Source of the DNA: a virus
Virus record (IMG/VR): IMGVR_UViG_3300037067_018253
Strand: one strand, 5' to 3'
DNA length: 64,000 bases
Part shown: piece after piece, positions 4,038 to 43,092 of the stretch
Numbering within the stretch: position 1 is the first letter of the stretch
Layout: the number at the start of each line of letters is the position of its first letter
The notes under the pieces: model-generated
What the model saw: the letters and a program-made list of their open reading frames with translations, nothing else
What the model was told of the DNA's origin: nothing
The model's database searches: none
Translations under genes and position numbers: made by a program

Positions 4038-4128
4038 CTTAATGTGACTGTTCCCCACGACTAAGGGACGAGACCCAGGCTATCCAGCCCGATGTGCCCG
4101 CACCGGGGTTTTAGACGGCGGGTATTGA
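4038..4128 (-). mobile_element. MITE-like miniature derivative of the IS200/IS605 element (RE end joined to LE end)
   Basis: About 50 nt match the RE of the full IS (ggctggatagcctgggtctcgtccc...gggaacagtca) fused via about 14 nt to 26 nt matching the LE terminus (tatcaatacccgccgtctaaaacccc); inverted orientation. Confidence 0.6.
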
Positions 4129-4412
4129 TAATACGTTGCCCTAAGTGTCGCGGCCAAAAAGCACTAATGCAGCCATCGGGAGATTTTTATGTCGCAGACT
4201 AGGGTTTTCAAGGGGGATAAGTTTACCCACGCTTTCGGTAGCCCGATTCCACATGGTTCCACTGTGTCAGTAGTTAAATTCTACCCACGCCGGCGTGTTA
4301 TCGTTGAGTATAATGGAGAACAATATTTGACGATGCTGTGGTGCCTAACTAAAATACCTCCATCCTAGAACTATTGCCAAAATTCCCCTGAAAGTGCTAC
4401 GCTTCTAATTAA

Positions 4413-6206
4413 ATGGAGGTGGACATCATGGCTAAATTTCCCAACATCAAGTATAGAGTTAATTACAATGCTTTCCCGGATATATCCTACATCCCCAATC
4501 AAGGTCCCTGTGAAGTAGTGTCCCCATTAGACTATTCATGGCTATCATGGTTCGGGGCGCCACTTCCAGACTTCAGCTTCGCTATTGAACCAGCGGTTAC
4601 TGGTGGTGAGCGTAAAATAGACCAGGCTATGGCCATGCTGAAGAACGGCGTTGAGTCTATTCAGAACAGTACCATCTTCAGGCAGTATCTGGAAACACTG
4701 GCCAAGTTCCATGACTATTCGATTGGCAATATCATGCTGATAATGCTACAAAGCAGGAATGCCACCAGGGTAGCCGGATTTAACACGTGGCGTGACCTGG
4801 GTAGGTTTGTTAAGGCTGGCGAAAAGGGCATCATGATACTAGCCCCCTGCTTGCCGCCAAAAGAGGTGTCTTGCCCATTATGTGGCACCAGTGGGCTGGT
4901 TGAGAAGTCTCTCCGTGAGCATGTCGCCGGCCAGCACCCGGGGGAGAATGTAGCGGCCATAGTTCGAACAGCTAAGGAAGGCGGCTTAACTGGTGGTGCT
5001 ATGTATTTCAAGGTTGTATATGTATTCGACATATCACAGACGGGCGGGAAGGACCTGCCTCAAATAGAGGTGCCAGCGTTATCCGGCGCAGCCAATGAAA
5101 CCCTGTTTTCACAGGCACTGGAGTTGGCACAAACACAGAATGTGGCGGTATCTTTTGAGGCAAGGCAGGCACAGGACCCGGAAATTAAGGGCATGTACTC
5201 TGGAATGGATATATGGGTGAAGGGCGATGAACCCCGGGCGCAGCAACTCAAGACATTACTTCATGAACTCTCCCATTATTACACTGAACGTGTGTTTGGC
5301 ATTGCCCGGGTTGATGCGGAAACCATAGCAGAAAGCTCCGCCTACGTAGTGGCTTCACGCTTTGGCTTCGACACTGGCACCAGGTCATTCCCTTATGTTG
5401 CCATATGGTCTCAGGATAAGAAGGTACTGGAAAAGAACCTGGCATCTATTCGCAGCGTGTCCGCACGGATAATCAGCGGATTAGAGGCTATTACAGTGGA
5501 GGTAAGTTTGCTAAAAGAATCGGACACAATTAATTACTATAACTATAAAGGTAAGAAGGTTGCTACCCCTGACGGAAATGGTGAGGTATTCCGAGCGGAA
5601 AAGGATGCCAAGGGATGGGCTTTCCTTGTGCGACTTGATAACCCGACTTCGCTTGAAAAAGCTAAATATTATCGAGTGGACGAGATTAATCTAGTGAGCC
5701 TGTTGAAAGAAACGGTGGTACCCACCGAGTGTTTCCTTTGTGGTAGAAAAATAAGAACACAACAATCACTTTATTACCGCTTCAATGATAAACTCTGGAA
5801 AGTAAGAGTATGTTCTATTTGTTATTCAGGTGCTAAAAACAATACACCTTCTACCGCTATTTCATGGAAATACGCGGACGAGGAAAGAGATAAAGCCAGA
5901 CGATTATTTGAGTCCGAAGGCAAGCCCGTTCCCGCCGAAGTCCTGAAGGATTATCCCGATTTAAAGCCAGTGAGTCTACTGAAAGAAAGCGCCATTAAAA
6001 CTCCATACCAGTACGGCAGAGAGGCTTTCGGCAAGGGACTTAAGGCAACCCCGCTGCACGATCCTGGTTTCATGAAGGCTTACCCGCTTAAGGGGTCCGT
6101 GGGTGAGAATACGGAATACTTTAAAGAGTGGAGCCAGGGATGGCATGAAGCCAATGCTAAATCAACTGAGGGACCGAGCCAATTGAAAGTCAAGGCCACC
6201 TATTGA
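4413..6206 (+). CDS. ArdC-like protein (N-terminal ssDNA-binding antirestriction domain plus zincin-like HExxH metalloprotease domain)
   Basis: N-terminal region (IFRQYLETLAKFHDYSIGNIMLIMLQ...GFNTWRDLGRFVKAGEKGIMILAP) typical of the ArdC-N/DUF1738 family; HELSH motif at LLHELSHYYTE. Confidence 0.65.
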   Translation: MEVDIMAKFPNIKYRVNYNAFPDISYIPNQGPCEVVSPLDYSWLSWFGAPLPDFSFAIEPAVTGGERKIDQAMAMLKNGVESIQNSTIFRQYLETLAKFHDYSIGNIMLIMLQSRNATRVAGFNTWRDLGRFVKAGEKGIMILAPCLPPKEVSCPLCGTSGLVEKSLREHVAGQHPGENVAAIVRTAKEGGLTGGAMYFKVVYVFDISQTGGKDLPQIEVPALSGAANETLFSQALELAQTQNVAVSFEARQAQDPEIKGMYSGMDIWVKGDEPRAQQLKTLLHELSHYYTERVFGIARVDAETIAESSAYVVASRFGFDTGTRSFPYVAIWSQDKKVLEKNLASIRSVSARIISGLEAITVEVSLLKESDTINYYNYKGKKVATPDGNGEVFRAEKDAKGWAFLVRLDNPTSLEKAKYYRVDEINLVSLLKETVVPTECFLCGRKIRTQQSLYYRFNDKLWKVRVCSICYSGAKNNTPSTAISWKYADEERDKARRLFESEGKPVPAEVLKDYPDLKPVSLLKESAIKTPYQYGREAFGKGLKATPLHDPGFMKAYPLKGSVGENTEYFKEWSQGWHEANAKSTEGPSQLKVKATY

Positions 6207-6224
6207 GATTTAAGGAGCAATCAA

Positions 6225-6563
6225 ATGCCTAAATCAATCGAGCCACGCCCAGATACTTTCAGTATTATTCCGCAGTATAGTTCAGTAAATAATCAACTAG
6301 TTGGTTTCACTGTTGAGGATCCTGAAGGCGGATTAATTGGGAAGCGTGATGACATTATCACCAAGATACATAAAAAGTTTCCCGAGGCCACACCTCGTAT
6401 CCTGAATCAAGCTGATTTTAAATACTTCCGCTATAGAGTGGTTATAAACCTAAAGAAAACAACAAAGGCCGGGGCTGATACTTCTGGAAAGCCCCGGCCT
6501 TTGACTGATGCTGAAATACTACGCCATGCCGATGAGATTATTAAGAGAATGAAATCCTCTTAA
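6225..6563 (+). CDS. hypothetical protein
   Basis: RBS aaggagcaatcaaATG; contains a perfect 11-bp inverted repeat (aaggccggggc/gccccggcctt) within the CDS. Confidence 0.45.
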   Translation: MPKSIEPRPDTFSIIPQYSSVNNQLVGFTVEDPEGGLIGKRDDIITKIHKKFPEATPRILNQADFKYFRYRVVINLKKTTKAGADTSGKPRPLTDAEILRHADEIIKRMKSS

Positions 6564-6802
6564 CGACCGGTGCCGGGGCGCTTTTTCGTGATGTTGAAGC
6601 CGCAGGCTTTACCGGCATCATACAGTGCCTGTTGAACCGCGATGTTATTGCGTCCGCCCATACCCTCGGGCGGTTTGGCGTAGGTCTTACCGGTGAGCTG
6701 ACCCTTGACGCAAATCTGTCCAGCTCCAGCCCGCCTGGCTTTAATACCGAGTGCGCGCCTCACTGTAACGGTAGGTACTGCCCCAAAACTTCTCTTGGCC
6801 AT
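6560..6802 (-). CDS. small basic protein, weak bL27-like resemblance
   Basis: 80 aa, Lys/Arg/Gly-rich; loose collinearity with ribosomal protein L27 (R-LG-K...GTK/GKTY...G-GR...A..DGK); solitary convergent gene followed by an AT-rich region. Confidence 0.3.
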   Translation of the reverse strand: MAKRSFGAVPTVTVRRALGIKARRAGAGQICVKGQLTGKTYAKPPEGMGGRNNIAVQQALYDAGKACGFNITKKRPGTGR

Positions 6803-7103
6803 TTTAATAAATCCTCCTATAAAAATTAAGAGCCACGCAAATTAATGCTGGCTCTTTGTTCCTACGTCCTCAAAGGCTCCTGAACTTTTGTCCTTCAGTT
6901 AGATACTATACCACCTTTTTAATAGTCTTGTCAAGAGTTTTTAAAGTTGGGTAGTGTAAAGTATTGTATTAACCGATACCGCTCAAGCATAATAAAGCTA
7001 AATTTCAAAACTTCGTGTTTAGTTTGCTTTTTTGCGCAGGTTGCACTTTGCCGCTTACATTTCCTGCAAAATTAGGGTGTTTATACCTCTATGGGAACAT
7101 CGC

Positions 7104-7727
7104 CTATTCTATTATAGGTTCAATGGTATATTCTTCCTCTTTCTCTTCCTCTTCCGCTTCACCTTGTTCCTCCCCACTACTATCATACACCGCCAATTGT
7201 GCGGCAAACTGCAATTTAACTACTTTGGGCACCTTTTTAACGAGTAGTAGTCGCCCCCCGGCGCCCGGTAAAAATTCATCCACTGTACCGGCAGTACTTA
7301 GCCCCCTCTCCCTTAACATACTCATAATTTTATTATCTGATAACATTAAATAAGTATCCATAAGTTCAAGTAGATCATCTGTGATTTCCTCGGCACCGGC
7401 CATCTTTAAGGCGTACTCCTTTGGGGACAACTGTGAGTAATCCTCTTTGGCCTTTACGTGGTTAGCCGCCTTGGCCTCCTGCCACTGTTTTCCCTTTTTA
7501 GATTGCTGTTGTTCTATGATGACAGAAAGGAGTATCTGTATCCTTTTACCAACACGCTTAGGTGAGTTTGATTCAATTATCTTGACCCACACCACTGGTT
7601 TAGTGCCCGGTTGCATCGGAGGTATGCTTTCTACCTCAACGATCTCGTCTTCGCCACTTCGGAACTTATCGCCTATTTTTATCGGCTTACGTGTTTTACC
7701 GGGTGGAAGCGCTTTATTCGGCTTCAT
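7104..7727 (-). CDS. hypothetical protein with poly-acidic C-terminal tail
   Basis: 207-aa ORF; C-terminus EEQGEAEEEEKEEEYTIEPIIE. Confidence 0.4.
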   Translation of the reverse strand: MKPNKALPPGKTRKPIKIGDKFRSGEDEIVEVESIPPMQPGTKPVVWVKIIESNSPKRVGKRIQILLSVIIEQQQSKKGKQWQEAKAANHVKAKEDYSQLSPKEYALKMAGAEEITDDLLELMDTYLMLSDNKIMSMLRERGLSTAGTVDEFLPGAGGRLLLVKKVPKVVKLQFAAQLAVYDSSGEEQGEAEEEEKEEEYTIEPIIE

Positions 7728-8074
7728 TGAATCTGCCTACCCTCCTGTACCTGTTGTTTGGCGAAGTTCTGCACCTCGCAATCAAACTCACGAAGCCTGG
7801 CTTTTAATTTATCATCGCCGGCCTTTTCTTTTATATCATCCAGTTTGGCGCAAATTGGCTCTATTTCCGTGTCGCCATGCTCATCCACTGTTTTCATCAG
7901 GTCATTAGCGAGGTCAGCCTTGCCGCGCTCTTCCAGTGTTTCCTTATACCACTGGACCACTGGACCAATCAGGCAAGGGTGACATACTTTATCATCCTTC
8001 TTTACCCATTCCGCCATCGGGACTGTGCAGGAACAGACATCTGTGTTTTCTACGGTGACCCCTTCATTGGACAT
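7724..8074 (-). CDS. hypothetical Cys-containing protein
   Basis: ORF in operon with 7104..7727; CSC...CHPC. Confidence 0.35.
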   Translation of the reverse strand: MSNEGVTVENTDVCSCTVPMAEWVKKDDKVCHPCLIGPVVQWYKETLEERGKADLANDLMKTVDEHGDTEIEPICAKLDDIKEKAGDDKLKARLREFDCEVQNFAKQQVQEGRQIQ

Positions 8075-8283
8075 CTTTACCCCCTTCGGCCTCTAATTTA
8101 TCTCCCAATTATTTACTATTTTCAATCACTAGCCGGACAACGCCGTTATGTAATTCGCAATCACGCTCGAACACCTTCTCTATATTATTTAACATCACTG
8201 GTGTAGGATTTTCAATTCCAATCGCACGCGCCAATTCATTCAAGGCTGCATCCTTTTGCCCCGCCTTATACTTTGTTTGGGCT

Positions 8284-8517
8284 TCAACGTAATGGTCGAG
8301 TGGAAGCATTTTTAATCCTCGCCGTCATCATTTCAGTGGTTAAAGTCTGTTCCTGTACCTTGCCAAGCACAGCCACGAATTGCTTGCATGCGTGACAACG
8401 GATATATATTTCAGCATCATTCACAATACCACGCAACCCTGTGAAGCGCCCGCAGTTAGAACACCGGATATTCTGTAAGCCATCAGGGTTAGCATCAGGA
8501 TGTTTAGGTACCATCAC
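8284..8517 (-). CDS. Zn-ribbon protein
   Basis: CSNCGRF...CHACKQF. Confidence 0.35.
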   Translation of the reverse strand: MMVPKHPDANPDGLQNIRCSNCGRFTGLRGIVNDAEIYIRCHACKQFVAVLGKVQEQTLTTEMMTARIKNASTRPLR

Positions 8518-9554
8518 TTATCCATCCTGGGCTTATAACTAATATCTGGAAAAGCCGTACTACCACCTTGTAGCAATACTCCGCTTTTGATATCGTCTAT
8601 GACTTTTATCATAATTTGCGCTGGGTCCACTATCCCGCGTCCCCTCATTTCCTGCATCACCTTACGATAGTAGGCGAAGTATTCCTTATTGCCTACAATT
8701 ACATCAGCAGTTACATCTTCGTGCGGGGTAGATTTCTTTGCCTTAACTGCCTCCGCCTTTTTAACTGTTTCAATCCCAAGTATTTTATCAATCTCATTCC
8801 TTTTGACCTGGAATGTTATGGACATCAAGGCGGCGGCATTCTGCACTGCCCGGGTGTGTTCCATTGTGCCATCAAGAGCATCTTCGCCACCAGCCCAGTG
8901 CCCCATTTCATGGTAGAAGGTGGATAGGGTGGATTCCTCATCTTCAAGAACATCCGGCACAAGATAAATTACGCCATCACTATAAGAGCATAGTCCTGAT
9001 ACCTGTGCCCCTGTACGTGGATCCGGTGGAATTGTCGCTGCCAGTATTTGAGGTTTGTTACCTCCATAAGTACACCGGTTGCACTGTTCGGATAAAAACC
9101 TTATAAGTTTTAAGTTGGTTTGTGCATTTTTAGACAGGTTTTTATCGAGGATAAACTTAGGTTTTTGCAACTCTTTTGCCCGCAGATCAGCGATGCTTTT
9201 ATCGGTAGGTACTATGTAGTATAGAAAACTTTTCACCGGATAAGTGAAGTCCTCGCCAACGGACTTATACCCGAATGCCTCCGCTATCCTGGATAGGTTA
9301 GGATCGCTCCTTAACACGGCACGCTTGCCATACAATGATTCCCACGCAGAAACCCACGCCGGTTTTTGCTCCTGTTCTTCCTGTAAATAGGCATTACCCC
9401 ACTGGGCGGTACTTTCAAAACTACCACGCTTCTCCATGGCCCTTAACGCCTTAACAGCTAAATCTTTGTCTGTTAAATTGGCCCATAATTTAGCTATAGC
9501 AGTGCGCATGGGCAGAGTTATCGATTTCACTGATACGGTCAGGGTTAAGCTCAA
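8514..9554 (-). CDS. HExxH (zincin-like) metallopeptidase-motif protein
   Basis: YHEMGHWAGGE motif; overlaps the upstream GHKL gene by 65 nt (possible single frameshifted gene). Confidence 0.45.
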   Translation of the reverse strand: MSLTLTVSVKSITLPMRTAIAKLWANLTDKDLAVKALRAMEKRGSFESTAQWGNAYLQEEQEQKPAWVSAWESLYGKRAVLRSDPNLSRIAEAFGYKSVGEDFTYPVKSFLYYIVPTDKSIADLRAKELQKPKFILDKNLSKNAQTNLKLIRFLSEQCNRCTYGGNKPQILAATIPPDPRTGAQVSGLCSYSDGVIYLVPDVLEDEESTLSTFYHEMGHWAGGEDALDGTMEHTRAVQNAAALMSITFQVKRNEIDKILGIETVKKAEAVKAKKSTPHEDVTADVIVGNKEYFAYYRKVMQEMRGRGIVDPAQIMIKVIDDIKSGVLLQGGSTAFPDISYKPRMDK

Positions 9555-10230
9555 GATTCCACAGATTATAGCTGTAATCAGATGGGCTCTCTAAGTCCCT
9601 TACATAGATATCGCCAACATATAACCTACCCTTGGGGCTAGTATATATTTGCTCTCTTCTGTCGAAGCGCCCGACTGATTCAGGATTACTATATATCGGC
9701 TTGCCCAGGAATGTAGTGAATCTATCTTTGTAAAGTTCGCCTGTATAACCCTCGATGGTCACTGTGGTGCCGGTACGTGTCTCATTCTGCTCTTTATATA
9801 TAAATGTGAGCAGGTTGGCCTCAATTCTACCCACGGTCATTGGGGATGCGTAAGCGCGGATAATCACACTGCCACTTTCAATTACAGGGATATACCCAAG
9901 CCGTACCGCCGTGATGCAGGCAAATTTAAGTCCCTCACCAAACCTACCACGCAGGTCCTTCTCCCCTTTAGACTCACGCAACAGCAGGCTTTCAGCGCCA
10001 AGCCCGCGCCCTTGGTCCTGAATAACTAAACCTTTTGTGGATAGTTTTATAGTTGGAGGTATGCTGATACCAGCGTCATCATGCTCATCGAGGGAATTCT
10101 GAAAAAATTCTCGTATAAAAAACCAAGGGGTATCCCAGTGACTTTTATAGGAGATGTCGAATCCCGGCTGAAATACCTTCCACCCCTTGCGCTTATAAGC
10201 GGTGAGTTGATCGGGGGAAAGGATATTCAT
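9490..10230 (-). CDS. GHKL (Hsp90/MORC/histidine-kinase-like) ATPase domain protein
   Basis: Bergerat-fold motifs: N-box FFQNSLDE, DxGxG as IQDQGRGLG, G-rich lid GRFGEGLKF. Confidence 0.6.
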   Translation of the reverse strand: MNILSPDQLTAYKRKGWKVFQPGFDISYKSHWDTPWFFIREFFQNSLDEHDDAGISIPPTIKLSTKGLVIQDQGRGLGAESLLLRESKGEKDLRGRFGEGLKFACITAVRLGYIPVIESGSVIIRAYASPMTVGRIEANLLTFIYKEQNETRTGTTVTIEGYTGELYKDRFTTFLGKPIYSNPESVGRFDRREQIYTSPKGRLYVGDIYVRDLESPSDYSYNLWNLELNPDRISEIDNSAHAHCYS

Positions 10231-10357
10231 TTTTTATCAGTGCCCTGCCCATTCTGTTTCCGGCGCCGGATTTCCTCAACCTGCTGCTTAACCAGCTTGT
10301 CTACACCTGATGTTTTCATGCTAGTATCGATTTCCTGTTTGGTATCACCTTTTTCCA

Positions 10358-10678: not shown

Positions 10679-10679
10679 T

Positions 10680-11009: not shown

Positions 11010-11183
11010 AATTATACCTCCACCTTAATATCAATCATCCTGTCCAACCTATCCCATAACTGATAGGCGGTAGTTTGTCTCCATTTTGTTTTTCCGCCGT
11101 CCTTATGCGCCTGAATGATTGCCCACTTTTTAAATTCCTCGAGGCACTTAGGGCAAACCACTACTGGTTCTACTGTCATAACT

Positions 11184-12533: not shown

Positions 12534-12630
12534 AGAAGAGCACAAACGAAATAGAAAAGAAAGCCCAAAAGGGCTTTGCCGTCTGTATCCCCAGTATTGA
12601 AATACGGGGTTTTAGACGGTGGGTGTTGAT
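12534..12630 (-). mobile_element. solo left end (LE) copy of the IS200/IS605-family element
   Basis: About 95 nt at roughly 90% identity to the reverse complement of 56360-56457 (LE with hairpin ccccagtattgaaatacgggg). Confidence 0.65.
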
Positions 12631-12727
12631 AAATTTCATTTTCTTCAATCACCATACATCCTTCGATTTTATATCCACAGTTAGTACACTCGAATATTTC
12701 CGTCACGGATAATATACCCTGCCATTT

Positions 12728-18506: not shown

Positions 18507-19401
18507 TTATAACCCCCTCTAAAGGTTCCAGGTGTGTATTTGTTGTACCGCCGTTCTTGGATTTCATTTTCATGTATAGCCTATCGAACTTCTCACGGAG
18601 GCTGGATGCGCTGAGTATATTAGACATCCAGAAGCTGTCCGATTGGCAAAAATCTATCACATCATGTATTTCCTGCGGTGTCCTTTTATCAAGCCTTAAC
18701 ATCAACCCGATTTCCTTGGACCATTTGGCTAAATTGTCCGGTACTTTAGCCCCGGGGTTGTTAATTAGCACCCTCTCTTTTAAATAATTTGCCAGTAAAA
18801 CTGCCCTGTCCGGACAGGGTTCGGACGTAGATGTTTCTTTAAGAGATTTATTTAATATTTCTTTATATAATGTAGGATGTGAACTTTTGTTCACGTCCAC
18901 CCCTGAACTTTTGTTCACGTCCACCCCTGAACTTTTGTTCATGTCCGTAACTTCAGGGGGTGAACTTTCGTTCAGGGGTAGAACTATTTGTTCACCCCCA
19001 TCATTTTGTTCCAGACCTGAAAATTTCTTCAATAACCGCTGATTTATGGTACCACTATTCCAGTTAGAAATCCGGGTGTTCATCTGGTAAATGTACCCTT
19101 TCCCTTGACCTAAGTCTTTACGTAATATTATTTTTGCTTCAGCCAGGTGTTTTATGCACTTAAATATGGCACGTTCACTAACGCGCAGATATTCTGCTAT
19201 CTCAGGTCTATGCAGGCACGTTTCTTTTTGGCGCTCTCCGTTGACTACCCATCCATAGGTTTTACGCCACAGTAGCAACACTATGCTTTTTTCGGTCCCA
19301 CTCAGGTTAGACAGCGCCAGTGCCTCCAGTAATAAGTTTGATACCGGAGTGGTCCCGTCTTCTGGATCTGCTTTAAGTTTGAATTTATCGCCCTTTGGCA
19401 T
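18499..19401 (-). CDS. phage replisome organizer / replication initiator (DnaD-like, Phage_rep_org_N-type)
   Basis: N-terminal LSGTEKSIVLLLWRKTYGW motif; contains iteron array encoding KSSGVDVNKSSGVDVNKSS. Confidence 0.6.
   Translation of the reverse strand: MPKGDKFKLKADPEDGTTPVSNLLLEALALSNLSGTEKSIVLLLWRKTYGWVVNGERQKETCLHRPEIAEYLRVSERAIFKCIKHLAEAKIILRKDLGQGKGYIYQMNTRISNWNSGTINQRLLKKFSGLEQNDGGEQIVLPLNESSPPEVTDMNKSSGVDVNKSSGVDVNKSSHPTLYKEILNKSLKETSTSEPCPDRAVLLANYLKERVLINNPGAKVPDNLAKWSKEIGLMLRLDKRTPQEIHDVIDFCQSDSFWMSNILSASSLREKFDRLYMKMKSKNGGTTNTHLEPLEGVIIE
18880..19000. repeat. iteron-like array: three 24-bp direct repeats (tgaacttttgttcacgtccacccc) plus inverted partial copies
   Basis: Direct reading; located inside the initiator gene as in lambda O-type origins. 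Confidence 0.55.
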
Positions 19402-22523: not shown

Positions 22524-23222
22524 CTACTTGTCTACCATTTTCCAGATATCGCCGTTAGGTAGCACGTTCTTAGTGAACATCTTGTATGGCATGGTTGATA
22601 TTCCGTTCACACCCCACAGCAACCTACCCCATGAGTTAGCTACAAGCCACCCTATCTCATCCCACCCAATAATTCTGAAGGCATGACCGCCGGCATTATT
22701 ACCATGTGGTTCAGGGAACATAGCCTTGGCATTATTCCAACTTTCAAACCACAGGCAAGCCGCGACAATACTGCCGTACTGGTACAGCACCTGTTTTATC
22801 GCTTCATCAGTACTCTCCGGCCCCATCCGGTAGTAAGCCTGGATCGCCCAGTATGAATCAGGCTTTTTCTGGAAACACAGTGATCCCTTCTGCCGGCACC
22901 CTTGTTCCTGAAGTATTTTCATCACTACACGCGGATATGTGCCCGGGGTATCAGGTATGCCGTCTATCTTCTTGCATTCGTTGTATAGCCACAACCCGTC
23001 GAAATTAACACGTTGCTTCGATTGCAAGAACTCCTGGTCAGTCTTACATCCGGTTGCGGCAAAAGCGCTGCACGCCGGATCCCCATTCTGGTCGTATATA
23101 ACCGTGTCCGGCCAGACAGTGTACTTTTTGGGAAGAGGCAGCGCCTGGTAGATTAGCCGCCTTGCCTCAAAATCACGGCTATCGGGGATATCCTTGATCC
23201 ATCCAAATAATCTTTCAACCAT
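22524..23222 (-). CDS. papain-like (C1-type) cysteine peptidase, candidate lysin
   Basis: Q...C block YDQNGDPACSAFAATGC; His block GGHAFRIIGWD; Asn block ANSWG. Confidence 0.5.
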   Translation of the reverse strand: MVERLFGWIKDIPDSRDFEARRLIYQALPLPKKYTVWPDTVIYDQNGDPACSAFAATGCKTDQEFLQSKQRVNFDGLWLYNECKKIDGIPDTPGTYPRVVMKILQEQGCRQKGSLCFQKKPDSYWAIQAYYRMGPESTDEAIKQVLYQYGSIVAACLWFESWNNAKAMFPEPHGNNAGGHAFRIIGWDEIGWLVANSWGRLLWGVNGISTMPYKMFTKNVLPNGDIWKMVDK

Positions 23223-23902
23223 TATATTGCAAAATACTTTCTTTCTGATTGAAACACTTTATATAGTTGATTTACTGTGGTGGTTACTGACATGCGAAGC
23301 ATAACGATGTAACCATCAAAGGTTCTATTGAGTGTTGCAGTTCCAACTCTTGCCAATGCTCCAACATTTGGAGGCGAAGTGACTGCACCTACTACTGAGG
23401 TTACATCAGTAAAACCATTCTTATTACCAATGTAAAGCTTCCTGGCGACTGTATTTATATGTGCTACCACAAATTGCCAGGAATTCATAACAACAGAGTT
23501 GCCAGACGACTCTGTTGCTGAGTCGTGGTCAACCAAAACTCTTAGAATATTACCAGTAGAAACATAGAATGCATAACCATCATACGCAGTTGTTGCAGTG
23601 CTTTTTTCTATAATGCGACCTGATGAAGCTGCTCCTAATGTTCTCGGATAAATCCACCCATAGATAAAGCCACCTCGTGTGAATCTCATTGATGGTGAAT
23701 CAGGAATTTCACAGTAAGAAGTAGCACCATTGAAATCTCGTACAAATAATCCCGATGGCAGCCTCACCCATGTAACATTGCTGTGTGTGCCATTATTGTG
23801 CCACCGAGAATTATCTTCATAGGCTGAGGCTGGTGTCGCTATACCAGTGTAGACTCGCTCGTTTAAGACCAAATTTGTTACACTCATATAATTCCAAACC
23901 AC
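23222..23902 (-). CDS. LamG/ConA-like lectin-domain protein (paralog 4)
   Basis: DNSRWHNNGTHSNVTWVRLPSG...FDGYI; conserved C-terminus SERKYFAI. Confidence 0.55.
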   Translation of the reverse strand: MVWNYMSVTNLVLNERVYTGIATPASAYEDNSRWHNNGTHSNVTWVRLPSGLFVRDFNGATSYCEIPDSPSMRFTRGGFIYGWIYPRTLGAASSGRIIEKSTATTAYDGYAFYVSTGNILRVLVDHDSATESSGNSVVMNSWQFVVAHINTVARKLYIGNKNGFTDVTSVVGAVTSPPNVGALARVGTATLNRTFDGYIVMLRMSVTTTVNQLYKVFQSERKYFAI

Positions 23903-24708
23903 CGCTTTTCAGATTCAAAGTTATTGCGAATTTCTCCAACAGATAATACTCTTTTAGATACCTTTAATGGATGTAAAAATCCATCAAAACTAGCTGCACT
24001 AGCAGTATTATCACCGATGCGTAAATTTTCACTTGCATCAGATATAATAGCCCCTACTGGAGCTAAGGTCTCAGTGACTGTAATAGAATTTCCATTCAAT
24101 GTAAAAATAGGATTATTCGCAACATTAGAGCCATTATATGTAATCCCAATATGAGAATATTTATTTAATGGAATAACTCTATCGGATTCCCAAGTTGCCC
24201 ATCCACCTGTCCATAATACTGCAAGACCTAGTTTTACATATCCAGCAACTTCATCATAAACATAAGAATAAAATCCCAATGTTGCTAAATCACTTTTATC
24301 TATGATTCTACCAACGTCATTTTCTCCATCACTTAATGGATTTATCCATATAAGAATTGTTCCTCCAGTGATAAAAATATTCTGAATTGATGGTGAATCA
24401 GTTATTGTTATTCGACTCGAAGCTCCATTAAATGAATATAACCATTTTCCACTAGGTAGTCTTACTTGTGTTACATTAGTAAAGACGCCATTATTATGAT
24501 AACGACTTCTATCCACTAGACTCGCTGGTGGAGTAGAGTTACTATTATACCTAGCTGGATTTAGAACAATATTATCAGACATTGAACCACCTACGCTCAG
24601 ACTCATAACTTTTACCAGCATCATCAGAATTAAATAGATAATTATGTATCTCAGGTAATGCCATATACCCAGGAAGTCTCCTTGGGGTAGCTCCACCTCT
24701 AGCTCCAA
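23884..24708 (-). CDS. LamG/ConA-like lectin-domain protein (paralog 3)
   Basis: DRSRYHNNGVFTNVTQVRLPSG...FDGFL...SEKRWFGII; true start probably internal, around 24582-24606. Confidence 0.55.
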   Translation of the reverse strand: MELEVELPQGDFLGIWHYLRYIIIYLILMMLVKVMSLSVGGSMSDNIVLNPARYNSNSTPPASLVDRSRYHNNGVFTNVTQVRLPSGKWLYSFNGASSRITITDSPSIQNIFITGGTILIWINPLSDGENDVGRIIDKSDLATLGFYSYVYDEVAGYVKLGLAVLWTGGWATWESDRVIPLNKYSHIGITYNGSNVANNPIFTLNGNSITVTETLAPVGAIISDASENLRIGDNTASAASFDGFLHPLKVSKRVLSVGEIRNNFESEKRWFGII

Positions 24709-25276
24709 GCATGACTGTATTACCGACTGGATTCAGAATGTCCACAATGTTTACCAGAGTCATAACTACACCATTTAGATAAAATTCAATAGTTGAAGTC
24801 GCTATGTTCCAGACATGAATCCACTGGTTCCAACGAGTAGATAGTAATGCTGACCCTCCCAATATACCGACCGTATTGGCACCAATGCCGAGGTAAACTG
24901 CATCAAGAGTTTGACCATATCCTATAGTTATGTCTGCTGTGGTAGGAGTATTAAGGTCTTTATTAAATACCACATAATTATTTGCAAAGTTATTGAACTT
25001 TACCCAGGCTTTAAATGTCTGTTGGGTATTTAAGTATAAACTTGCTCCTGTTCCTAAAGTTATTTGGCTGGTTACACCGTCAAACGATATAGCGAAAAGA
25101 TCGGATGGTAATTGGCTCCATGTAGTACCTGCTGTAAATACTCCGTTGTTGTTATAACGAGAAGAATCAGACAATTCCAACGCAGGTGAAGTACTACCTG
25201 GAGGACTCCAGAATTTCTCACCTTGGAATACTATATTTGAGGCTTTAGACATTATAGAGCCTCCTCTCGGATTCAA
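24575..25276 (-). CDS. LamG/ConA-like lectin-domain protein (paralog 2)
   Basis: SDSSRYNNNGVFTAGTTWSQLPS...SERRWFNV. Confidence 0.55.
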   Translation of the reverse strand: MNPRGGSIMSKASNIVFQGEKFWSPPGSTSPALELSDSSRYNNNGVFTAGTTWSQLPSDLFAISFDGVTSQITLGTGASLYLNTQQTFKAWVKFNNFANNYVVFNKDLNTPTTADITIGYGQTLDAVYLGIGANTVGILGGSALLSTRWNQWIHVWNIATSTIEFYLNGVVMTLVNIVDILNPVGNTVMLGARGGATPRRLPGYMALPEIHNYLFNSDDAGKSYESERRWFNV

Positions 25277-25964
25277 AAATATGGAGTAACTGCGCTAAAT
25301 CTAATGCGTAGGTAAATATGCGTAATTTAGAGATGTAACCATCAAAGCCTCGGTCTACTGCAGCAGTTTGATTTCCAATTCTCGTTATCGAAGATACATT
25401 AGGGGGTAAAGATAATCCACCTGCGATGTTAGTAACATCACTAAAACCTTTAGCATTACCAGAATATATTTTACGGGCGGTACTATTAATATATACTACA
25501 CAAAACTGCCAAGAGTTAAGTATGATTGAATTTGCATTACTGATTGTTACCGCATCGTTATTTACTGATACTATCAAACTCCTTACATTGGTTACATTAT
25601 TAACTTGAAATCTATATCCATTTGTACCAAGTACATCACTGCCTTTATGGATAATGCGACCACCATTAGACCCTCCAAGAGTTCGTGGATAAATCCACCC
25701 TAGTATCATTCCACCACGTGTAAATCGCATACTTGGTGAATCAGGTATTTCTGCATACGCATCTAATGCACCGCCATTGCCATAGTCAGGAATCCATAAG
25801 TCGTTATTCGGAAATCCATTTAACTTATTTTGCTGGCTCCATGTGACATTAGTAAGCGCACCATTGTTACCCATCCTCGATGCGTCATATAAAGTAACAG
25901 CAGATGGGGATGCCCCACCTGCTCTACTGGCGACATCTAATATTTCACTTGAACTTAGCTTCAT
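25245..25964 (-). CDS. LamG/ConA-like lectin-domain protein (paralog 1)
   Basis: DASRMGNNGALTNVTWSQ...FDGYI...SERRLYNV. Confidence 0.55.
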   Translation of the reverse strand: MKLSSSEILDVASRAGGASPSAVTLYDASRMGNNGALTNVTWSQQNKLNGFPNNDLWIPDYGNGGALDAYAEIPDSPSMRFTRGGMILGWIYPRTLGGSNGGRIIHKGSDVLGTNGYRFQVNNVTNVRSLIVSVNNDAVTISNANSIILNSWQFCVVYINSTARKIYSGNAKGFSDVTNIAGGLSLPPNVSSITRIGNQTAAVDRGFDGYISKLRIFTYALDLAQLLHIFESERRLYNV

Positions 25965-36422: not shown

Positions 36423-36444
36423 ATACTGACGACCTCCTTAATTT

Positions 36445-36600: not shown

Positions 36601-36696
36601 AGGTCTCTACCCGTCGGCTTCAACCTACTGTTATAATAGTCTAATATTATTTTCAACTTTTTGTCAATAGTTTTTGGGATATTATTCTAATTTAAT

Positions 36697-37335: not shown

Positions 37336-37571
37336 TACTTTCCGCTTACCATCTTTTTGATGCGGTCAAACACACTGGGGTTCTTAACCATCTCGTTGCC
37401 GAGGTTGCCCAGGTTTACTGCGGTAACGCCATTGGCCTGCATAGTCACCAGATGGTTATTGTTAGCTCTATTACTATTAATATACTCCTGTACGGCCCTC
37501 GATGCCTCCGCTTTTTCAGCAGACGTATTCGCTGTTGTAACCATTCTCCTTACTTCATCCCATGTATACAT
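37335..37571 (-). CDS. hypothetical small protein
   Basis: ORF. Confidence 0.35.
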   Translation of the reverse strand: MYTWDEVRRMVTTANTSAEKAEASRAVQEYINSNRANNNHLVTMQANGVTAVNLGNLGNEMVKNPSVFDRIKKMVSGK

Positions 37572-37583
37572 ATCGGCCTCCTT

Positions 37584-39389
37584 CTATTCCACTCTCACTA
37601 GGTGGTCGGTCCAGAATTGGTAACTACACCCGGGTTGCAATAATGCCCCTGGTGCCGTAAACTGGCCAAGGTATTCTTCGCCATTAGCGCCACCATAGAA
37701 GTTTATAGCGAATATATCCCCGAAATACCCATTGGCATTAAGTTTACTGGCTGGCCCCTGATATACCCATGGGTTGGGGACTTTAATTGTATATGCTGGT
37801 GCAATAGCACTAGGGATAAAATAAGGGTACCAGTAAGTCACTCCAGGTGGTACTGAACCAATGAAAACGCCCAGGCTAACACCAGCAGTTTTGGTTTGGA
37901 ATGAAACCGTTACGCCACTAGATATAATCTCATTCATCAGCTTCTCAGTGGTCGAGTGAATGGCTTTATTGGCCGAGGCCACAGCGCGGAACTGGCATGA
38001 TTTATCAGGAGATAGTCCGGTTATAATAACCTGAAATTGCTGCGGTTCATATAGTAACTGCGATGCCGTTTTATTCCACATCTGTGAATCCGCCTGCTTC
38101 CACTCAAAGTAACAGGATGGATATGAATACACGCCGCCCGCCGCCCATCCCATAGCATCTAGTTTTCCCCTTAACTCAGCGCTTACACCGGTTATATTAC
38201 CGGCTGGCAATGTTATCACGGTCGGTAAAACCACATCCTCCGGTTCAAATATAGGTATCCCTCCGCCTCCGCCACCAGCCCCGCTGATGGTAATTACATT
38301 GGCTACTACCGGACTAACCACATTAACCCCATCTACTATCTTGGCATAGACAGAGTAAGTCCCGGGGTCAACCGCAGATGTAATTGGTATAGTTATAGTG
38401 GACGTTCTTTGTGTCCATGTGCTGGATGCTTCGTTATTCATCCCCACCTTTCTACTTAGAACCTCGTCGAAGCCAAAAATACCACTGTTACCGATAGCAG
38501 CGTACAGGCTTTGCCCGGTTGAAGTAGGTCCCATGTATTCATATCTAACCGTGATATTCAGATTCCCGCCAACGGCCACATTGCCAGTTTGCCCAATCAC
38601 GGATAGATTCCTATACTGCGGATTACCAGATGGCGTTCCTCCGCCTCCGCCACCAGCCCCGCTGATGGTAAAAATATCATCATCCTGCCTGCTGGCAACC
38701 TTCTCGCTGTTTACCCATGCCTCCACCCCGACATCATACCTATCCTTAATAGCCCCGGTCGTATCATGTTCAACCACGGCATTTATAGTCTGGTCCGTGT
38801 TGACCCTGATTGTCTTTGAGTAGCTTTTTATAAGGTCACCGGCCCCAGGTAATATCGAGCCTTCATACACGCCCACCTTAACAGTAACATCAACCGGTGA
38901 TCCTGTATTTGTAATCGGGGTAGTGATAGTTGTTTTCTGTCCAGCTGTAACTGAACTTGGACTTGCGTATGGAGCTGCCAGTTTAATGCCACCCCCGCCA
39001 GATGGTAATGATGCGCCTGCAACCGTCATGGTTTTTATCTCGCTTGCAACCGGTGGAAATGGAGGTAGCACCACTGACCCAACTGGAATAGATGGACCGA
39101 TATATACCCTCGGTATCACCTTATAATCCCCGGTACGGCTAAACCCCTGGTCATAGGTCACATTGAATTTACCCCCGATTACAGTAGACAGTTCGCGTAC
39201 CTCGGGACTACCGAGCAATGGTATTATTTCCTCCCATAACGACTGGGGATATTCCACGGTCACGATTAGCCATACTGGAAGCAAGAAGGACAATCCGAAC
39301 AAGTCTATCTCACCGGATATGGCTACTGGTTGGTCCGGACGCGGTGTTTCCGGTGTTATCTTTAGGTTCTTAATTTCAAATAAAGCCAT
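37584..39389 (-). CDS. large beta-rich (Ig-like) structural protein with duplicated GAGGGGGG module
   Basis: Internal repeat ISGAGGGGGG occurs twice; roughly 40-nt nucleotide repeats at about 38263 and 38638. Confidence 0.45.
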   Translation of the reverse strand: MALFEIKNLKITPETPRPDQPVAISGEIDLFGLSFLLPVWLIVTVEYPQSLWEEIIPLLGSPEVRELSTVIGGKFNVTYDQGFSRTGDYKVIPRVYIGPSIPVGSVVLPPFPPVASEIKTMTVAGASLPSGGGGIKLAAPYASPSSVTAGQKTTITTPITNTGSPVDVTVKVGVYEGSILPGAGDLIKSYSKTIRVNTDQTINAVVEHDTTGAIKDRYDVGVEAWVNSEKVASRQDDDIFTISGAGGGGGGTPSGNPQYRNLSVIGQTGNVAVGGNLNITVRYEYMGPTSTGQSLYAAIGNSGIFGFDEVLSRKVGMNNEASSTWTQRTSTITIPITSAVDPGTYSVYAKIVDGVNVVSPVVANVITISGAGGGGGGIPIFEPEDVVLPTVITLPAGNITGVSAELRGKLDAMGWAAGGVYSYPSCYFEWKQADSQMWNKTASQLLYEPQQFQVIITGLSPDKSCQFRAVASANKAIHSTTEKLMNEIISSGVTVSFQTKTAGVSLGVFIGSVPPGVTYWYPYFIPSAIAPAYTIKVPNPWVYQGPASKLNANGYFGDIFAINFYGGANGEEYLGQFTAPGALLQPGCSYQFWTDHLVRVE

Positions 39390-39402
39390 TATTCATCCCT
39401 CC

Positions 39403-40446
39403 CTATAATTGGTAGGTGGTATATGTCTGCGATTCCCCGCTCATATATTGTATTTCAACCTGCGCATTTCCAGGCTGTAGTGTTCCATAGGTACCTACAT
39501 CTATGGTGTTTTGCCCAACTCCGCCCGGTCCAGTCGCAGAACCCAGTGTAAATCCATCAGATCTGCGAGATATAATCACGGCTACCGTCTCCGCGGCCTT
39601 TCCACTGATGGTATAATTAACCCTTACCTTTCCATTGTCAGCCAGTGCCGGTACTACGATTGATGCAGACGTGATATTTACCTGTGTGGGGGCGCCTTCA
39701 CCCCTGGCTGGTATATATACCTCAGACTCCACCCAATTAGAATATACAGGGCTGCCATAGGCATTAGGTACGCCCGCTATGGGTTTATATACAACCACTC
39801 TGAATTTGATTGCATGCATACCTTCAGGCACATCGCTTGAAACCGCCTGATACCCGTTGATAGAAAATTTTTGTTCCGGTTCTGGCACGGGCCAACCATA
39901 ATCAAGCTCCTGAACCTGTGGGCTGTAATCAGGGATGTTCATTTGCAATCTTGCTACACCAGGCTTCTCGCCGGTATAATACCACGTTCCCTGTATCAAT
40001 AATCCGGGCGGTACCGTTGTAAATGTCATCCATCCGGCCCCGCATCGCTCAAGGTATACAATGGTAGATGGTGAAGTCGGCGGCGGTTCAGTTTCTGGTG
40101 GTGCCTCCGGTGGAGTAAATGCATTGGTATAATTCTGTGCCAGTAACGACAGGTCGAGTGAATCTATGACACCATCATTATTAAAATCAGCCTGCGGATT
40201 CCATATACCGAGTGTCGGCGTAGCCATGTAGGACTCCAGTAATATATTCGTGTCCTCGTCATCCACTACACCATCATGGTCAAGGTCAAAATCTGGCTTA
40301 CCCGGTATTATCTCCGGGGGTAACTCCACGGATTCTTTATACCACGGCCACCGACCTTTCCATGGAAGATAATCCTCCAGTATTTTTGGCAGTGGCGGCC
40401 CCTCTTTAATGCCGACAGGCAACCAATCTATTATTTTAAAAGACAT
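39403..40446 (-). CDS. structural protein carrying a type I dockerin module and Pro/Thr linker
   Basis: DLDHDGVVDDEDTNILLESYM and DFNNDGVIDSLDLSLLAQNY repeats; PPEAPPETEPPPTSPS linker; N-terminal GPPLP...WPW motif. Confidence 0.6.
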   Translation of the reverse strand: MSFKIIDWLPVGIKEGPPLPKILEDYLPWKGRWPWYKESVELPPEIIPGKPDFDLDHDGVVDDEDTNILLESYMATPTLGIWNPQADFNNDGVIDSLDLSLLAQNYTNAFTPPEAPPETEPPPTSPSTIVYLERCGAGWMTFTTVPPGLLIQGTWYYTGEKPGVARLQMNIPDYSPQVQELDYGWPVPEPEQKFSINGYQAVSSDVPEGMHAIKFRVVVYKPIAGVPNAYGSPVYSNWVESEVYIPARGEGAPTQVNITSASIVVPALADNGKVRVNYTISGKAAETVAVIISRRSDGFTLGSATGPGGVGQNTIDVGTYGTLQPGNAQVEIQYMSGESQTYTTYQL

Positions 40447-40455
40447 TTAAACCTC

Positions 40456-41250
40456 CTATTTTATCCACGGCCATTTTATATGAAGGAAATTTGGCAGTGG
40501 GGGTCCATTCCATGGCAGCATGGGCAACCACATGGAAAGAAGCGATGAGCCGCTTTCCAGAACAGGTGGTGTCGCCGCCTTTTCTCTAATTGTATTACTG
40601 TTCCAGTCATATACATAGATCTTATCGGTTTCAAGTTCCAGGAATGGAACCTGCCTGATTTCTTTTTGAATACTCCCATCTTCATCCATGCGGAAATTAA
40701 GGTACTGGTAGGTCTTTAGATTCCATATGGAAACAGGCTGGTCTACTGCCGCATCACCACTAGTATAATTACCGGTCACGAATCCATTTACCCACCAGTG
40801 GACAGTTCCAGCCGGCGGATTTTCCAAGTAGATAGTAGTGCGCGGCACCTCAACCGGAGGTGGTGGTGTAACTATCACTGCTGATGGTGTAACGGTTACA
40901 ATAGTACCATCACCACTAAGCGCAACGTCGAATGTATCATCAACAGTATTGATTATAAATGGTTGCGAATAGTAGTAATCATCCACCGGCAGGGGCTTTA
41001 TACCGGTGAAATCCAGCCATCTTATTCCTAATACCACCGGTCTATTCAAAAAGTCATTTATGTTAATCCAGTCTGGTGGGCTCGTATTCCACGTATATCC
41101 CTCTGCGGGGTAGCTAACTACGGATGGCCCAAATGCACTAGGCGATGATGCTGGATTAACTATCTGCAACGTGATACCCATAGCACTTGGTGTTCTGTTT
41201 AGAATCGGGCTTATGGGATTACCTGTCAGTAAGAATGTAGGCATTATCAT
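40456..41250 (-). CDS. structural protein with C-terminal PPW-GPPLP-WPWIK motif
   Basis: C-terminus LPMLPWNGPPLPNFLHIKWPWIK. Confidence 0.45.
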   Translation of the reverse strand: MIMPTFLLTGNPISPILNRTPSAMGITLQIVNPASSPSAFGPSVVSYPAEGYTWNTSPPDWININDFLNRPVVLGIRWLDFTGIKPLPVDDYYYSQPFIINTVDDTFDVALSGDGTIVTVTPSAVIVTPPPPVEVPRTTIYLENPPAGTVHWWVNGFVTGNYTSGDAAVDQPVSIWNLKTYQYLNFRMDEDGSIQKEIRQVPFLELETDKIYVYDWNSNTIREKAATPPVLESGSSLLSMWLPMLPWNGPPLPNFLHIKWPWIK

Positions 41251-41258
41251 GGCCTCCC

Positions 41259-41498
41259 CTAGATTATTTTTCTTCCGGTAAGTACCTCAAACTCACGGCG
41301 AAGTTCCTCGGTAAACCCGCGCTTCCTGATTGTCACCCATGGGGGCTCTTCCTGAATACGTCTGACTGCGCGGGTAAAGAAACCAGGCCATGAAATATCC
41401 CACGAATCCGGCAACGGGGGTCCTTTGGATGGTGAGGTCGGTTTTAGAAGTATCTCTGCAATTTGCAGTACAGTCGCCTGTTTATTTGTTACTGGCAT
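41259..41498 (-). CDS. small protein with GPPLP...W.WPG motif
   Basis: SKGPPLPDSWDISWPGFF. Confidence 0.35.
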   Translation of the reverse strand: MPVTNKQATVLQIAEILLKPTSPSKGPPLPDSWDISWPGFFTRAVRRIQEEPPWVTIRKRGFTEELRREFEVLTGRKII

Positions 41499-41826
41499 TA
41501 CTTTCCCCCTTGACCGCTTTTGCCACTACATTTGGTACCGGGGGCAACCACTTATTTACCAGTGCAGGGGCAAGAATGTCGTTCACCTTATCTCTTAATT
41601 GAGGAAGTCCGTCTATATTGGGAACAGGGGGAGCCATAACCTTAATGACCCCCGCAAACTTACTCTCGAAAGTACCGGGGCCATGTATAATAGCGGCACT
41701 TCTCTTTATGGCCTCTATTCCCTGACTAATGGGGTTGTCTGTTAGAATATTAAACATAACAACTACACCTCCCCTTATAGAGAAGTGTAGTTGAAAAATG
41801 GCAAAAATGTCAATAGTTTGATGCAT
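41482..41826 (-). CDS. hypothetical protein
   Basis: ORF. Confidence 0.3.
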   Translation of the reverse strand: MHQTIDIFAIFQLHFSIRGGVVVMFNILTDNPISQGIEAIKRSAAIIHGPGTFESKFAGVIKVMAPPVPNIDGLPQLRDKVNDILAPALVNKWLPPVPNVVAKAVKGESNASNK

Positions 41827-41838
41827 GAGGGTGCAAGA

Positions 41839-42063
41839 TTAGATTACAGGGGGCTCAAACATTCCAGCGAAGGGCATTTTAACGCGACCATGGCTAGGGC
41901 ACATTGCGTTAGGTTGATTAATAAGGCCAGATACGTTATCAAGTTCAATAGCCTCATCCGGTTCAACGGCTTCTCTGCAAATAGGACAAATAGCACGGAA
42001 CGTGTACTCCCCGTATCTCATTAATCTCAGCCGCAGTAATTTATTACCGAAATCTTTGGTCAC
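41839..42063 (-). CDS. Zn-ribbon protein
   Basis: CPICRE...CPSHG. Confidence 0.35.
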   Translation of the reverse strand: MTKDFGNKLLRLRLMRYGEYTFRAICPICREAVEPDEAIELDNVSGLINQPNAMCPSHGRVKMPFAGMFEPPVI

Positions 42064-42069
42064 TTTTTA

Positions 42070-42984
42070 TTATCCTTTTGGGTTAATTCCCAGTATTTCC
42101 CTGATTCTTTCCCTGATGTCATAGTCGTAAATACATCCATCAGTAAGATTACTGGGGAAATCTTGGCCTTGCAGATATGGCAAAAATGCACTAGCCAGCC
42201 GATTGAAGGCATATTCAGGTGGAGAAGGTGAATACTTGTCCTGCGTGCATTTAATGTTGAGCATGACCACTTGTCCAACCCACTCAGCGATCTGGTTCAT
42301 AGTTGGCGGAGATGGATTTGTAAGCCAGTACGTGCCTGGCTCTTTTATCCGCGCCATTGCATCCGTAACAGCCTCAACCTTGACGATATTAAGATGCCCG
42401 CATGGATTACCGTAAAGCCTGAAAGTAATCTCTAATGGTGGTAAATGTACCGCACCCTCGAATGCCCTGCGGATTAACTCTGCGCGCCGGTGTACCTTTA
42501 TTATTAAAGATATAAAGGTGGAAAAATGTTCTTCATTTGGACCAAACACAATCCCCGGCTTAAAAACGGTCACATTCGGAATGTCACTGTGGCTTACCAG
42601 CAGTTCGCAGACTGATTTTGATATTTCGTAGGTATTCATAGACTGGCAAAAGGCAGTGCTGCAATAATACAGGTGGGGTACTTTATGCTTTGCGCAGAAA
42701 TCTATGACGTTTTTAGTGCCTTCTACATTGGTACGCCATATTTCCCCGGATTTATCTTCTCCAAGGCGTAGAACTGCGGCCAGGTGGTATACTGCATCGA
42801 AATGTTTATCGTTCCATACCCTGCCGAAATCAGGCAATAGTATATCGCCGGAAACCTCTCCATTATCTGGATAAGCTGCACCATGATGTATGAGTTTTAC
42901 TACTTCGTTACCTTGTTTTACCAGCTTGGGTATCAGCGAACGTCCGATTGCCCCAGTACCACCGGTGACTAATATAGTTCCCAA
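42070..42984 (-). CDS. NAD-dependent epimerase/dehydratase (extended SDR)
   Basis: VTGGTGAIGRSL Rossmann motif; YxxxK at YEISK; probable TTG start. Confidence 0.7.
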   Translation of the reverse strand: MGTILVTGGTGAIGRSLIPKLVKQGNEVVKLIHHGAAYPDNGEVSGDILLPDFGRVWNDKHFDAVYHLAAVLRLGEDKSGEIWRTNVEGTKNVIDFCAKHKVPHLYYCSTAFCQSMNTYEISKSVCELLVSHSDIPNVTVFKPGIVFGPNEEHFSTFISLIIKVHRRAELIRRAFEGAVHLPPLEITFRLYGNPCGHLNIVKVEAVTDAMARIKEPGTYWLTNPSPPTMNQIAEWVGQVVMLNIKCTQDKYSPSPPEYAFNRLASAFLPYLQGQDFPSNLTDGCIYDYDIRERIREILGINPKG

Positions 42985-42999
42985 GATTTTACCTCTTAT

Positions 43000-43092
43000 C
43001 TACCGAGAATGACTGTTCCCCACGACTAAAGTCGGGGGCTTCTAGGGACGAGACCCAGGCTATCCAGCCCGATAGCCAGAATATTAAGTGAG
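43000..43092 (-). mobile_element. solo right-end (RE / tnpB 3' end) copy of the IS200/IS605 element
   Basis: Reverse complement matches 57520-57597 (cctcacttaatattctggctatcgggctggatagcctgggtct...gggaacagtca) with one indel; lies 25 nt upstream of the SDR gene start. Confidence 0.65.

Follow-up and report, generated by a model that had tools for sequence, protein, structure and literature searches.

Within the IS200/IS605 family of insertion sequences (IS), the IS1341 group, with ISDra2 and IS608 as the studied relatives, is marked by a three-domain TnpB protein with an intact RuvC site, by subterminal hairpins at both ends, left (LE) and right (RE), instead of terminal inverted repeats, and by insertion 3' of a fixed tetranucleotide without target duplication. 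The RE overlaps the 3' end of tnpB and encodes an omega-RNA, and the sequence after the terminal TCAC is the guide. Here we examined a window of 64,000 nucleotides (nt) of viral DNA (IMG/VR record IMGVR_UViG_3300037067_018253). It carries one full-length element of this kind, on the plus strand, and three partial copies on the minus strand, i.e. a solo LE, a solo RE and a mini-element built from pieces of both ends. The full-length element is a non-autonomous IS1341-type member of IS200/IS605. We consider it about 85% probable that the family consists of this one intact element and three products of ordinary IS decay.

All of the above features are shared by the element in the window, with TTAT as the fixed tetranucleotide. 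Common to both is also an omega-RNA in which bases immediately preceding the guide take part in a pseudoknot. In ISDra2 the pseudoknot uses bases adjoining the guide, and RNA 5' of the pseudoknot-bearing 116-nt scaffold is dispensable (PMC10097598). Compared with this 116-nt scaffold the core supported by covariation is about 62-76 nt here. In contrast to the studied members, a tnpA is missing from the window, the replicon is phage-like, and most finds of the clade are on phage-like contigs. Both omega-RNA-only elements that need TnpB in trans and tnpB elements of phages are already described (PMC10055086; bioRxiv 10.64898/2026.02.14.705889). Like the element studied here, that of cyanophage A-1(L) is present in one phage, absent from close relatives and has a long open frame on the reverse strand of tnpB. 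It is identical to host copies, whereas here a scan of one genome per species found no host copy (bioRxiv 10.64898/2026.02.14.705889). A further comparison is with the TnpB homing model. A variant of the window, strain N (GCA_043956695.1, GCA_043956575.1; about 99.3-99.7% identical), has an empty site in which TTAT is followed by an exact match to the guide of the full copy (TATGAACATCGGCTTG), and this is what the model predicts (PMC10055086). The setting differs in that the alleles belong to competing phage strains, not to sister chromosomes, and in that our comparison is one of sequences.

The copies were identified by comparing the window with itself and by a blastn search of the whole window with the full element (56366-57596) as query. 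The solo LE matched at 12539-12636 (94.9% identity over 98 nt, E 2.4e-39) and the solo RE at 43010-43096 (88.5% over 87 nt, a single 7-nt gap included, E 2.1e-27), both of them minus-strand matches. In the mini-element, the LE part matched at 4104-4132 (100% over 29 nt including TTAT, E 6e-9) and the RE part at 4044-4093 (81% over 58 nt, E 1.4e-10). Beyond these four copies the blastn search with the element returned nothing significant in the window. Thus, all three remnants exist, far beyond chance. A first-pass annotation of the window had proposed that the four copies are related, and the alignments bear this out (E 2e-39 to 6e-9). Its coordinates were right within a few bases; the refined limits are listed in Table 1. 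An identity above 85% over 80-95 nt had been claimed for the matches, which is correct for the solo LE and the solo RE and too high for the RE part of the mini-element. The proposed origin of all pieces from one IS200/IS605-type element bearing tnpB agrees with the Pfam domains, the RuvC residues and the match to ISDra2 TnpB given below.

Table 1. Positions of the full-length element, its parts and its remnants in the 64,000-nt window (aa, amino acids; Ha, Hb and Hc, first to third helix of the omega-RNA; SAM, S-adenosylmethionine).
Feature	Position	Strand	Remarks
Full-length IS1341-type (tnpB-only) IS200/IS605 element	56366..57596	+	1231 bp, 3' of TTAT (56362-56365), ends TCAC
Left end (LE)	56366..56455	+	nested DNA hairpin, then a second small hairpin and a TGcTATAAT motif, upstream of tnpB
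tnpB gene	56468..57601	+	377 aa; TGA stop overlaps ATG of the downstream radical-SAM gene
Omega-RNA core, full copy	57535..57596	+	Ha, Hb, Hc and pseudoknot; RNA-model score 74.7 bits
Predicted guide of full copy (TATGAACATCGGCTTG)	57597..57612	+	guide role predicted from the TnpB homing model (PMC10055086, PMC8612924)
Mini-element	4044..4127	-	84 nt: LE bases 1-24, 11-nt tnpB relic (GTGCGGGCACA), about 49 nt of RE
Solo LE	12538..12628	-	91 nt: LE bases 1-90 and one C; TTAT at 12629-12632
Solo RE	43009..43096	-	88 nt: last 28 tnpB codons and RE; core at 43009-43077
Spacer, would-be guide of solo RE (TCTCGGTAGATAAGAG...)	42985..43008	-	24 nt, contains AAGAGG ribosome-binding motif

The limits of the full copy were taken from the empty site of strain N. 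At this locus (contig L103) strain N reads ...GACAAAATTAT/TATGAACATC... (in short ...AAATTAT/TATGAAC..., the slash marking the junction), and the occupied site in the window reads ...AAATTAT/CAATACCC...CAGTCAC/TATGAAC.... Positions 1-2797 of L103 correspond to 53569-56365 of the window, and L103 from 2798 onwards corresponds to the window from 57597. The empty site therefore gives the exact limits and the TTAT target and demonstrates that the target was not duplicated. The full copy is polymorphic, present in the window and absent from the strain N site, where the methylase gene leads directly into the radical-SAM gene. Because it is occupied here and empty in a near-identical strain, it was recently gained or lost. 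As a side observation, the methylase of strain N has 430 aa and its TGA overlaps the ATG of the radical-SAM gene (L103 2790-2805, window 56365/57597). In the window the insertion altered the last residues of the methylase, which now has 434 aa, and the tnpB stop makes the ATGA overlap. A Logan contig (L105) has its first base exactly at 57597, a hint that alleles are mixed in the sample it came from.

The ends conform to the family. All 42 of 42 related elements end in TCAC, and the LE of relatives lies directly 3' of TTAT, TTTAT or TTTAC. Terminal inverted repeats are absent; instead, a similar subterminal hairpin of 8 bp with a T bulge is present at LE and RE. The LE hairpin consists of an outer stem, GCCGTCT/AGACGGC, and an inner stem, CCCCGTAT-TTCA-ATAC(T)GGGG. 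Folded as DNA, the LE had a z-score of -4.0, and none of 200 shuffles was as good. At the RE hairpin, i.e. helix Hc of the RNA, compensatory changes were observed across relatives at 8 of 8 pairs; in the full copy this hairpin is 7 nt shorter than the family norm. A tnpA was not found between LE and RE, and none of the 44 ORFs (open reading frames) of 100-200 aa in the window matched Y1_Tnp (about 5 kb of the source contig lie outside the window). This fits the non-autonomous IS1341 group. The element would be moved as a single strand by the Y1 transposase TnpA, presumably supplied in trans, and would insert 3' of TTAT (TTAY in relatives) without target duplication.

The TnpB protein matched PF12323 (HTH_OrfB_IS605, 1.5e-12), PF01385 (OrfB_IS605, 8.4e-27) and PF07282 (Cas12f1-like_TNB, 1.3e-19) in Pfam, as well as ISDra2 TnpB (E 2e-59). 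The RuvC residues D184, E268 and D348 are present and invariant in the alignment. The closest relatives, at 63-77% identity, sit on phage-like or IMG/VR contigs. The clade is common on phage-like contigs, with 80 loci in IMG/VR, 38 of these at 44-70% identity.

Antisense to tnpB, in the codon-aligned frame, runs an ORF of 330 aa (56522-57514, minus strand). Codons 20-351 of tnpB are devoid of TTA, CTA and TCA, the antisense stops, which make up 3.95% in the other genes of the window (P about 1.5e-6). The same relative frame is open over at least 320 codons in 21 of 37 tnpB relatives (L002-L058), and the number of antisense-stop codons among these relatives is bimodal, 0-1 versus 5-21. As the antisense-open relatives include AT-rich genes (GC content 0.36-0.37) which use CTT and TCT heavily, GC bias is no explanation. 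The antisense ORF had no Pfam match. It may be a real overlapping gene within one subclade; a similar ORF, 'TnpB_rev', is reported from cyanophage A-1(L) and Anabaena (2026 preprint, bioRxiv 10.64898/2026.02.14.705889).

For the omega-RNA, the last 92-190 nt of 35-37 relatives on phage-like contigs were aligned for RNA structure. RNAalifold returned two helices with many compensatory changes. A scan of all column pairs yielded a third helix and a pseudoknot in which the loop of the first helix pairs with bases -7 to -3 before the element end. The combined structure of three helices and pseudoknot was 97.2% paired, and 21 of 24 pairs changed on both sides (35 relatives); the pseudoknot was paired in 100% of cells. 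None of 500 shuffles reached these values, and sliding the 3' partners by 1-3 columns reduced pairing to 37-48%. Conserved structure further upstream was not found within 190 nt. Because of this, and because RNA 5' of the scaffold is not required in ISDra2, the functional core is probably only the last 62-76 nt of the element. In the full copy Ha is formed by 57535-41/57548-54, Hb by 57555-58/57565-69 and the pseudoknot by 57543-47 with 57590-94. Hc is the shortened form of 5 bp, CCCTA-GTCA-TAGGG. A second target was not found in the window for any of the guides, and Rfam at gathering thresholds gave zero matches in the window.

Two of the remnants disrupt small ORFs. Excision of the solo LE restores a 70-aa zinc-ribbon ORF (CTNC...CPLC), and excision of the mini-element joins 3924-4043 and 4128-4202 in frame to a 64-aa zinc-ribbon ORF (CGDC...CPKC). 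The solo LE is located between the two CxxC pairs of its ORF, not at the 3' end of the ORF as originally annotated. It has kept both hairpins, with a z-score of -4.4 for the DNA fold, and downstream of it no IS-derived bases were detected beyond chance. It would represent a copy in a second zinc-ribbon gene from which everything beyond LE base 90 was lost; the extra C is possibly the final RE base. At 12560-12577 (minus strand) the solo LE contains a terminator-like hairpin with a T-rich run behind it, oriented like the surrounding operon (AAAGCCC-TTTT-GGGCTTT CTTTTCTATT). Compared with 56417-56434 of the full LE it carries an A to G and an A to C change, by which a mismatch becomes a G-C pair.

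The mini-element, read in element orientation, has the order TTAT, LE 1-24, GTGCGGGCACA, RE and the RE end TCAC, with its TTAT at 4128-4131 on the minus strand. Of 12 bases compared, the linker GTGCGGGCACA has 11 in common with the zinc-finger codons of tnpB, a match that 1 of 300 shuffles equalled. From the RE the 5' strand of Ha, the invariant CTAGAAGCC motif and the 5' strand of Hc are gone. Judged by this arrangement, the mini-element is an internally deleted relic in place. A full copy would have inserted in a small zinc-ribbon gene and then have suffered at least three internal deletions. Most likely, mini-element and solo LE are dead relics which inactivated two small genes. Around the TTAT of the mini-element promoter-like matches are more frequent than expected (4 versus 1.1). 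One weak match at 4128-4157 of the minus strand (TTGGCC, 18 nt, TATTAT; 9/12) has its end on the target TTAT. Its direction is into the mini-element and antisense to the zinc-ribbon ORF that is split there.

The solo RE retains the entire omega-RNA core. Its Hc is canonical (8 bp, T bulge, TTTA loop), Ha and Hb are kept, the pseudoknot partners GGCUG and CAGUC are intact, and the minimum-energy fold gives Ha, Hb and Hc of the family. At its final position a T replaces the C. A covariance model from which the solo RE sequence had been left out scored it at 78.9 bits (E 2e-14), above the RE of the full copy. Its neighbors on either side are genes of its own direction, and the TTG of a short-chain dehydrogenase/reductase (SDR) epimerase gene (42070-42984) follows after 24-25 nt, as annotated. 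Upstream of the solo RE no IS-derived bases were found beyond chance. A copy upstream of the epimerase gene would have lost the LE and most of tnpB. Most probably, all three remnants are non-mobile. Yet the solo RE, itself a relic, still appears structurally competent to serve as an omega-RNA when TnpB comes in trans. Its transcription together with the operon is probable, and the TnpB of the full copy could load it. The first-pass suggestion that it could in principle yield a guide-bearing RNA is consistent with its complete set of covariation-supported helices, its pseudoknot and its score.

Is the solo RE then a working orphan omega-RNA gene, cotranscribed with its operon, processed and loaded in trans by the TnpB of the full copy and equipping the phage with a second guide? 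Such a guide would direct cutting of related genomes which contain TTAT directly followed by TCTCGGTAGATAAGAG, in phage competition or homing; alternatively, TnpB bound at this place would mask the epimerase gene's ribosome-binding site. We regard this as unlikely, although several observations point in its direction. The complete omega-RNA core was retained when nearly everything else was deleted, and its score is within the 56-98 bits of most full-element REs of the family. The solo RE runs in the same direction as both neighboring genes. An intact tnpB is available in the same genome. Omega-RNA-only elements which need TnpB in trans are known (PMC10055086), and the dispensability of RNA upstream of the 116-nt scaffold in ISDra2 (PMC10097598) points in the same direction. 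Further, neither the solo-RE allele of the window nor that of strain N has lost Ha, Hb, the pseudoknot or the closure of Hc. However, this is a single case, and the target is absent from the window and from the one related strain examined. Strain N retains the solo RE, yet the one site examined there for the full element is empty. The related loci that were fetched, with flanks of 1.5 kb for the 80 from IMG/VR and of 3-6 kb for another five, contained no other solo RE by a covariance-model scan. Finally, retention of a solo RE over so short a divergence does not need selection.

The layout of the mini-element resembles that of PATEs (palindrome-associated transposable elements; PMC3119063, PMC10055086): it is non-coding, and its tips are correct, with LE 1-24 directly after TTAT, TCAC at the end and no target duplication. 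The first-pass label of a PATE-like miniature inverted-repeat transposable element (MITE) is justified to this extent. An active PATE or MITE, moved as a unit by TnpA, is nevertheless very improbable. Different from PATEs, both subterminal palindromes are truncated, the LE hairpin without its 3' arm and the RE hairpin without its 5' arm, and the DNA fold was no better than that of shuffles (z = +0.1). The 11-nt tnpB relic inside points to stepwise deletion. It is also a single copy. RE words of 20-23 nt were absent from IMG/VR, from one genome per species (GTDB) and from JGI metagenomes, and a 31-nt LE word was absent from IMG/VR. The proposed search of host and phage genomes for additional copies, done with RE core and LE words, thus found no related copy in the collections scanned. 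One single word-scan match (L015) was rejected as a chance match within an unrelated ORF. The mini-element is no better as a source of omega-RNA, a role that had been considered for it: the RNA model did not match it even at E = 10 with filters off.

Even less probable is that RE remnants were kept as promoters or 5' regulatory signals for the gene downstream. This idea came from an apparently consistent position of the REs at gene 5' ends. It is correct that two of three RE ends, those of the full copy and the solo RE, lie upstream of a same-strand gene start, at a distance of 1-25 nt. The RE of the mini-element, however, faces the antisense side of the split ORF. Of 36 relatives, 6 have a gene that starts on the RE strand no more than 60 nt away, and 18 have a convergent gene there. 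In a tightly packed genome nearly any intergenic insertion adjoins a gene start. A scan restricted to sigma-70-type sites located none in or beside the REs.

An RE-LE junction at 4038-4128, of an excised circle as first annotated or of a tandem dimer, would agree with RE- and LE-derived sequences no more than 10 nt apart. The arrangement of the parts and their flanks refutes this reading. In element orientation the LE precedes the RE, TTAT stands before the LE and TCAC next to the host ORF, of which the two halves are found on either side. The ends that are joined come from inside the element, and its tips face outward. The sequence CAGTCAC/CAATACCC, expected where tip meets tip, has no occurrence in the window beyond chance.

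Some observations weigh against simple decay of one intact element into three remnants. First, the full copy has the shortened RE hairpin, and its competence as a TnpA substrate is derived solely from the occupied/empty polymorphism. Second, uninterrupted homologs of the two zinc-ribbon ORFs were not found; the sole database match was the split ORF of this very phage, and Pfam and PHROG returned only sub-threshold zinc-ribbon matches for both reconstructed ORFs. Therefore, both reconstructions rest on internal logic. Third, the solo REs of the two near-identical strains differ at the same truncated site. In strain N (contig L018) the solo RE has the same site and 5' junction, but is the short-hairpin variant, with 1 of 82 bases different from the full-copy RE of the window. 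The solo RE and the mini-element of the window share the other variant (GTCTCG, GTCGTGGGG). Simple decay in place is insufficient for this, and an exchange of RE copies must be added. Two RE variants across loci and strains indicate that at least two element variants existed in the lineage and that RE sequence moved between loci. Conversion of the strain N solo RE by a full copy of its own was considered and dropped because the strain N site is empty where the window has the full copy. Possibly, recombination between phages imported a diverged allele. This explains the data equally well as conversion between copies, since the solo-RE differences are within a 330-nt patch of raised divergence. 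Neither of the two accounts for the near-identity of the strain N solo RE to the full-copy RE of the window (1 of 82). Over its 330 nt the patch itself (window 42990-43318 versus L018) shows 11 substitutions and an indel of 7 nt, compared with about 0.5% overall, and further such patches occur elsewhere between window and strain N. This patchiness suggests mosaic recombination among phage strains.

The window belongs to a metagenomic phage-like genome which encodes ArdC-like, HNH, methylase, ParA-like, integrase-like and radical-SAM proteins. No closely related genome was found among deposited phages, and IMG/VR searches by protein with the epimerase, radical-SAM and ArdC-like sequences did not find related loci. 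Exact-protein look-ups mostly retrieved this phage itself, re-assembled from other samples and with the same remnants (L001, L016, L017 and L101); three of them gave no match. The window has further repeats. At 18880-18951 an intergenic-looking stretch holds a 24-nt unit (TGAACTTTTGTTCACGTCCACCCC) three times in tandem, twice in identical form, perhaps as an iteron or operator array. Between 52691-53573 and 60757-62146, about 8.1-8.6 kb apart, collinear patches of 86-100% identity indicate a duplicated gene block. Adjacent minus-strand ORFs of 226-274 aa at 23222-25964 share patches of 71-90% identity and look like tandem paralogs. An exact 34-nt direct repeat (38260-38293 and 38638-38671, 378 nt apart) is contained in a 601-aa ORF (37584-39389) for which no PHROG match was obtained.

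The repeat family as such is routine and shows how IS200/IS605 elements decay to solo ends and miniature relics in a phage-like genome. The pair of occupied and empty sites fixes the limits, the TTAT target and the guide of a compact, uncharacterized TnpB of 377 aa. Together with the unusually short core of about 62-76 nt including a pseudoknot, this is information for testing a small genome editor. One strain with nuclease and guide and a close relative with the matching target constitute a setting for RNA-guided homing between viruses. The solo RE is a natural test case for the use of an orphan omega-RNA in trans. A phage that directs one TnpB with at least two guides from separate loci against co-infecting relatives lacking the insertions is unlikely. 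If true, it would be a natural multi-guide, trans-acting TnpB and possibly a step from one transposon with one guide towards arrays, and the orphan scaffold would stay functional through RE variants exchanged by the solo locus and full elements.

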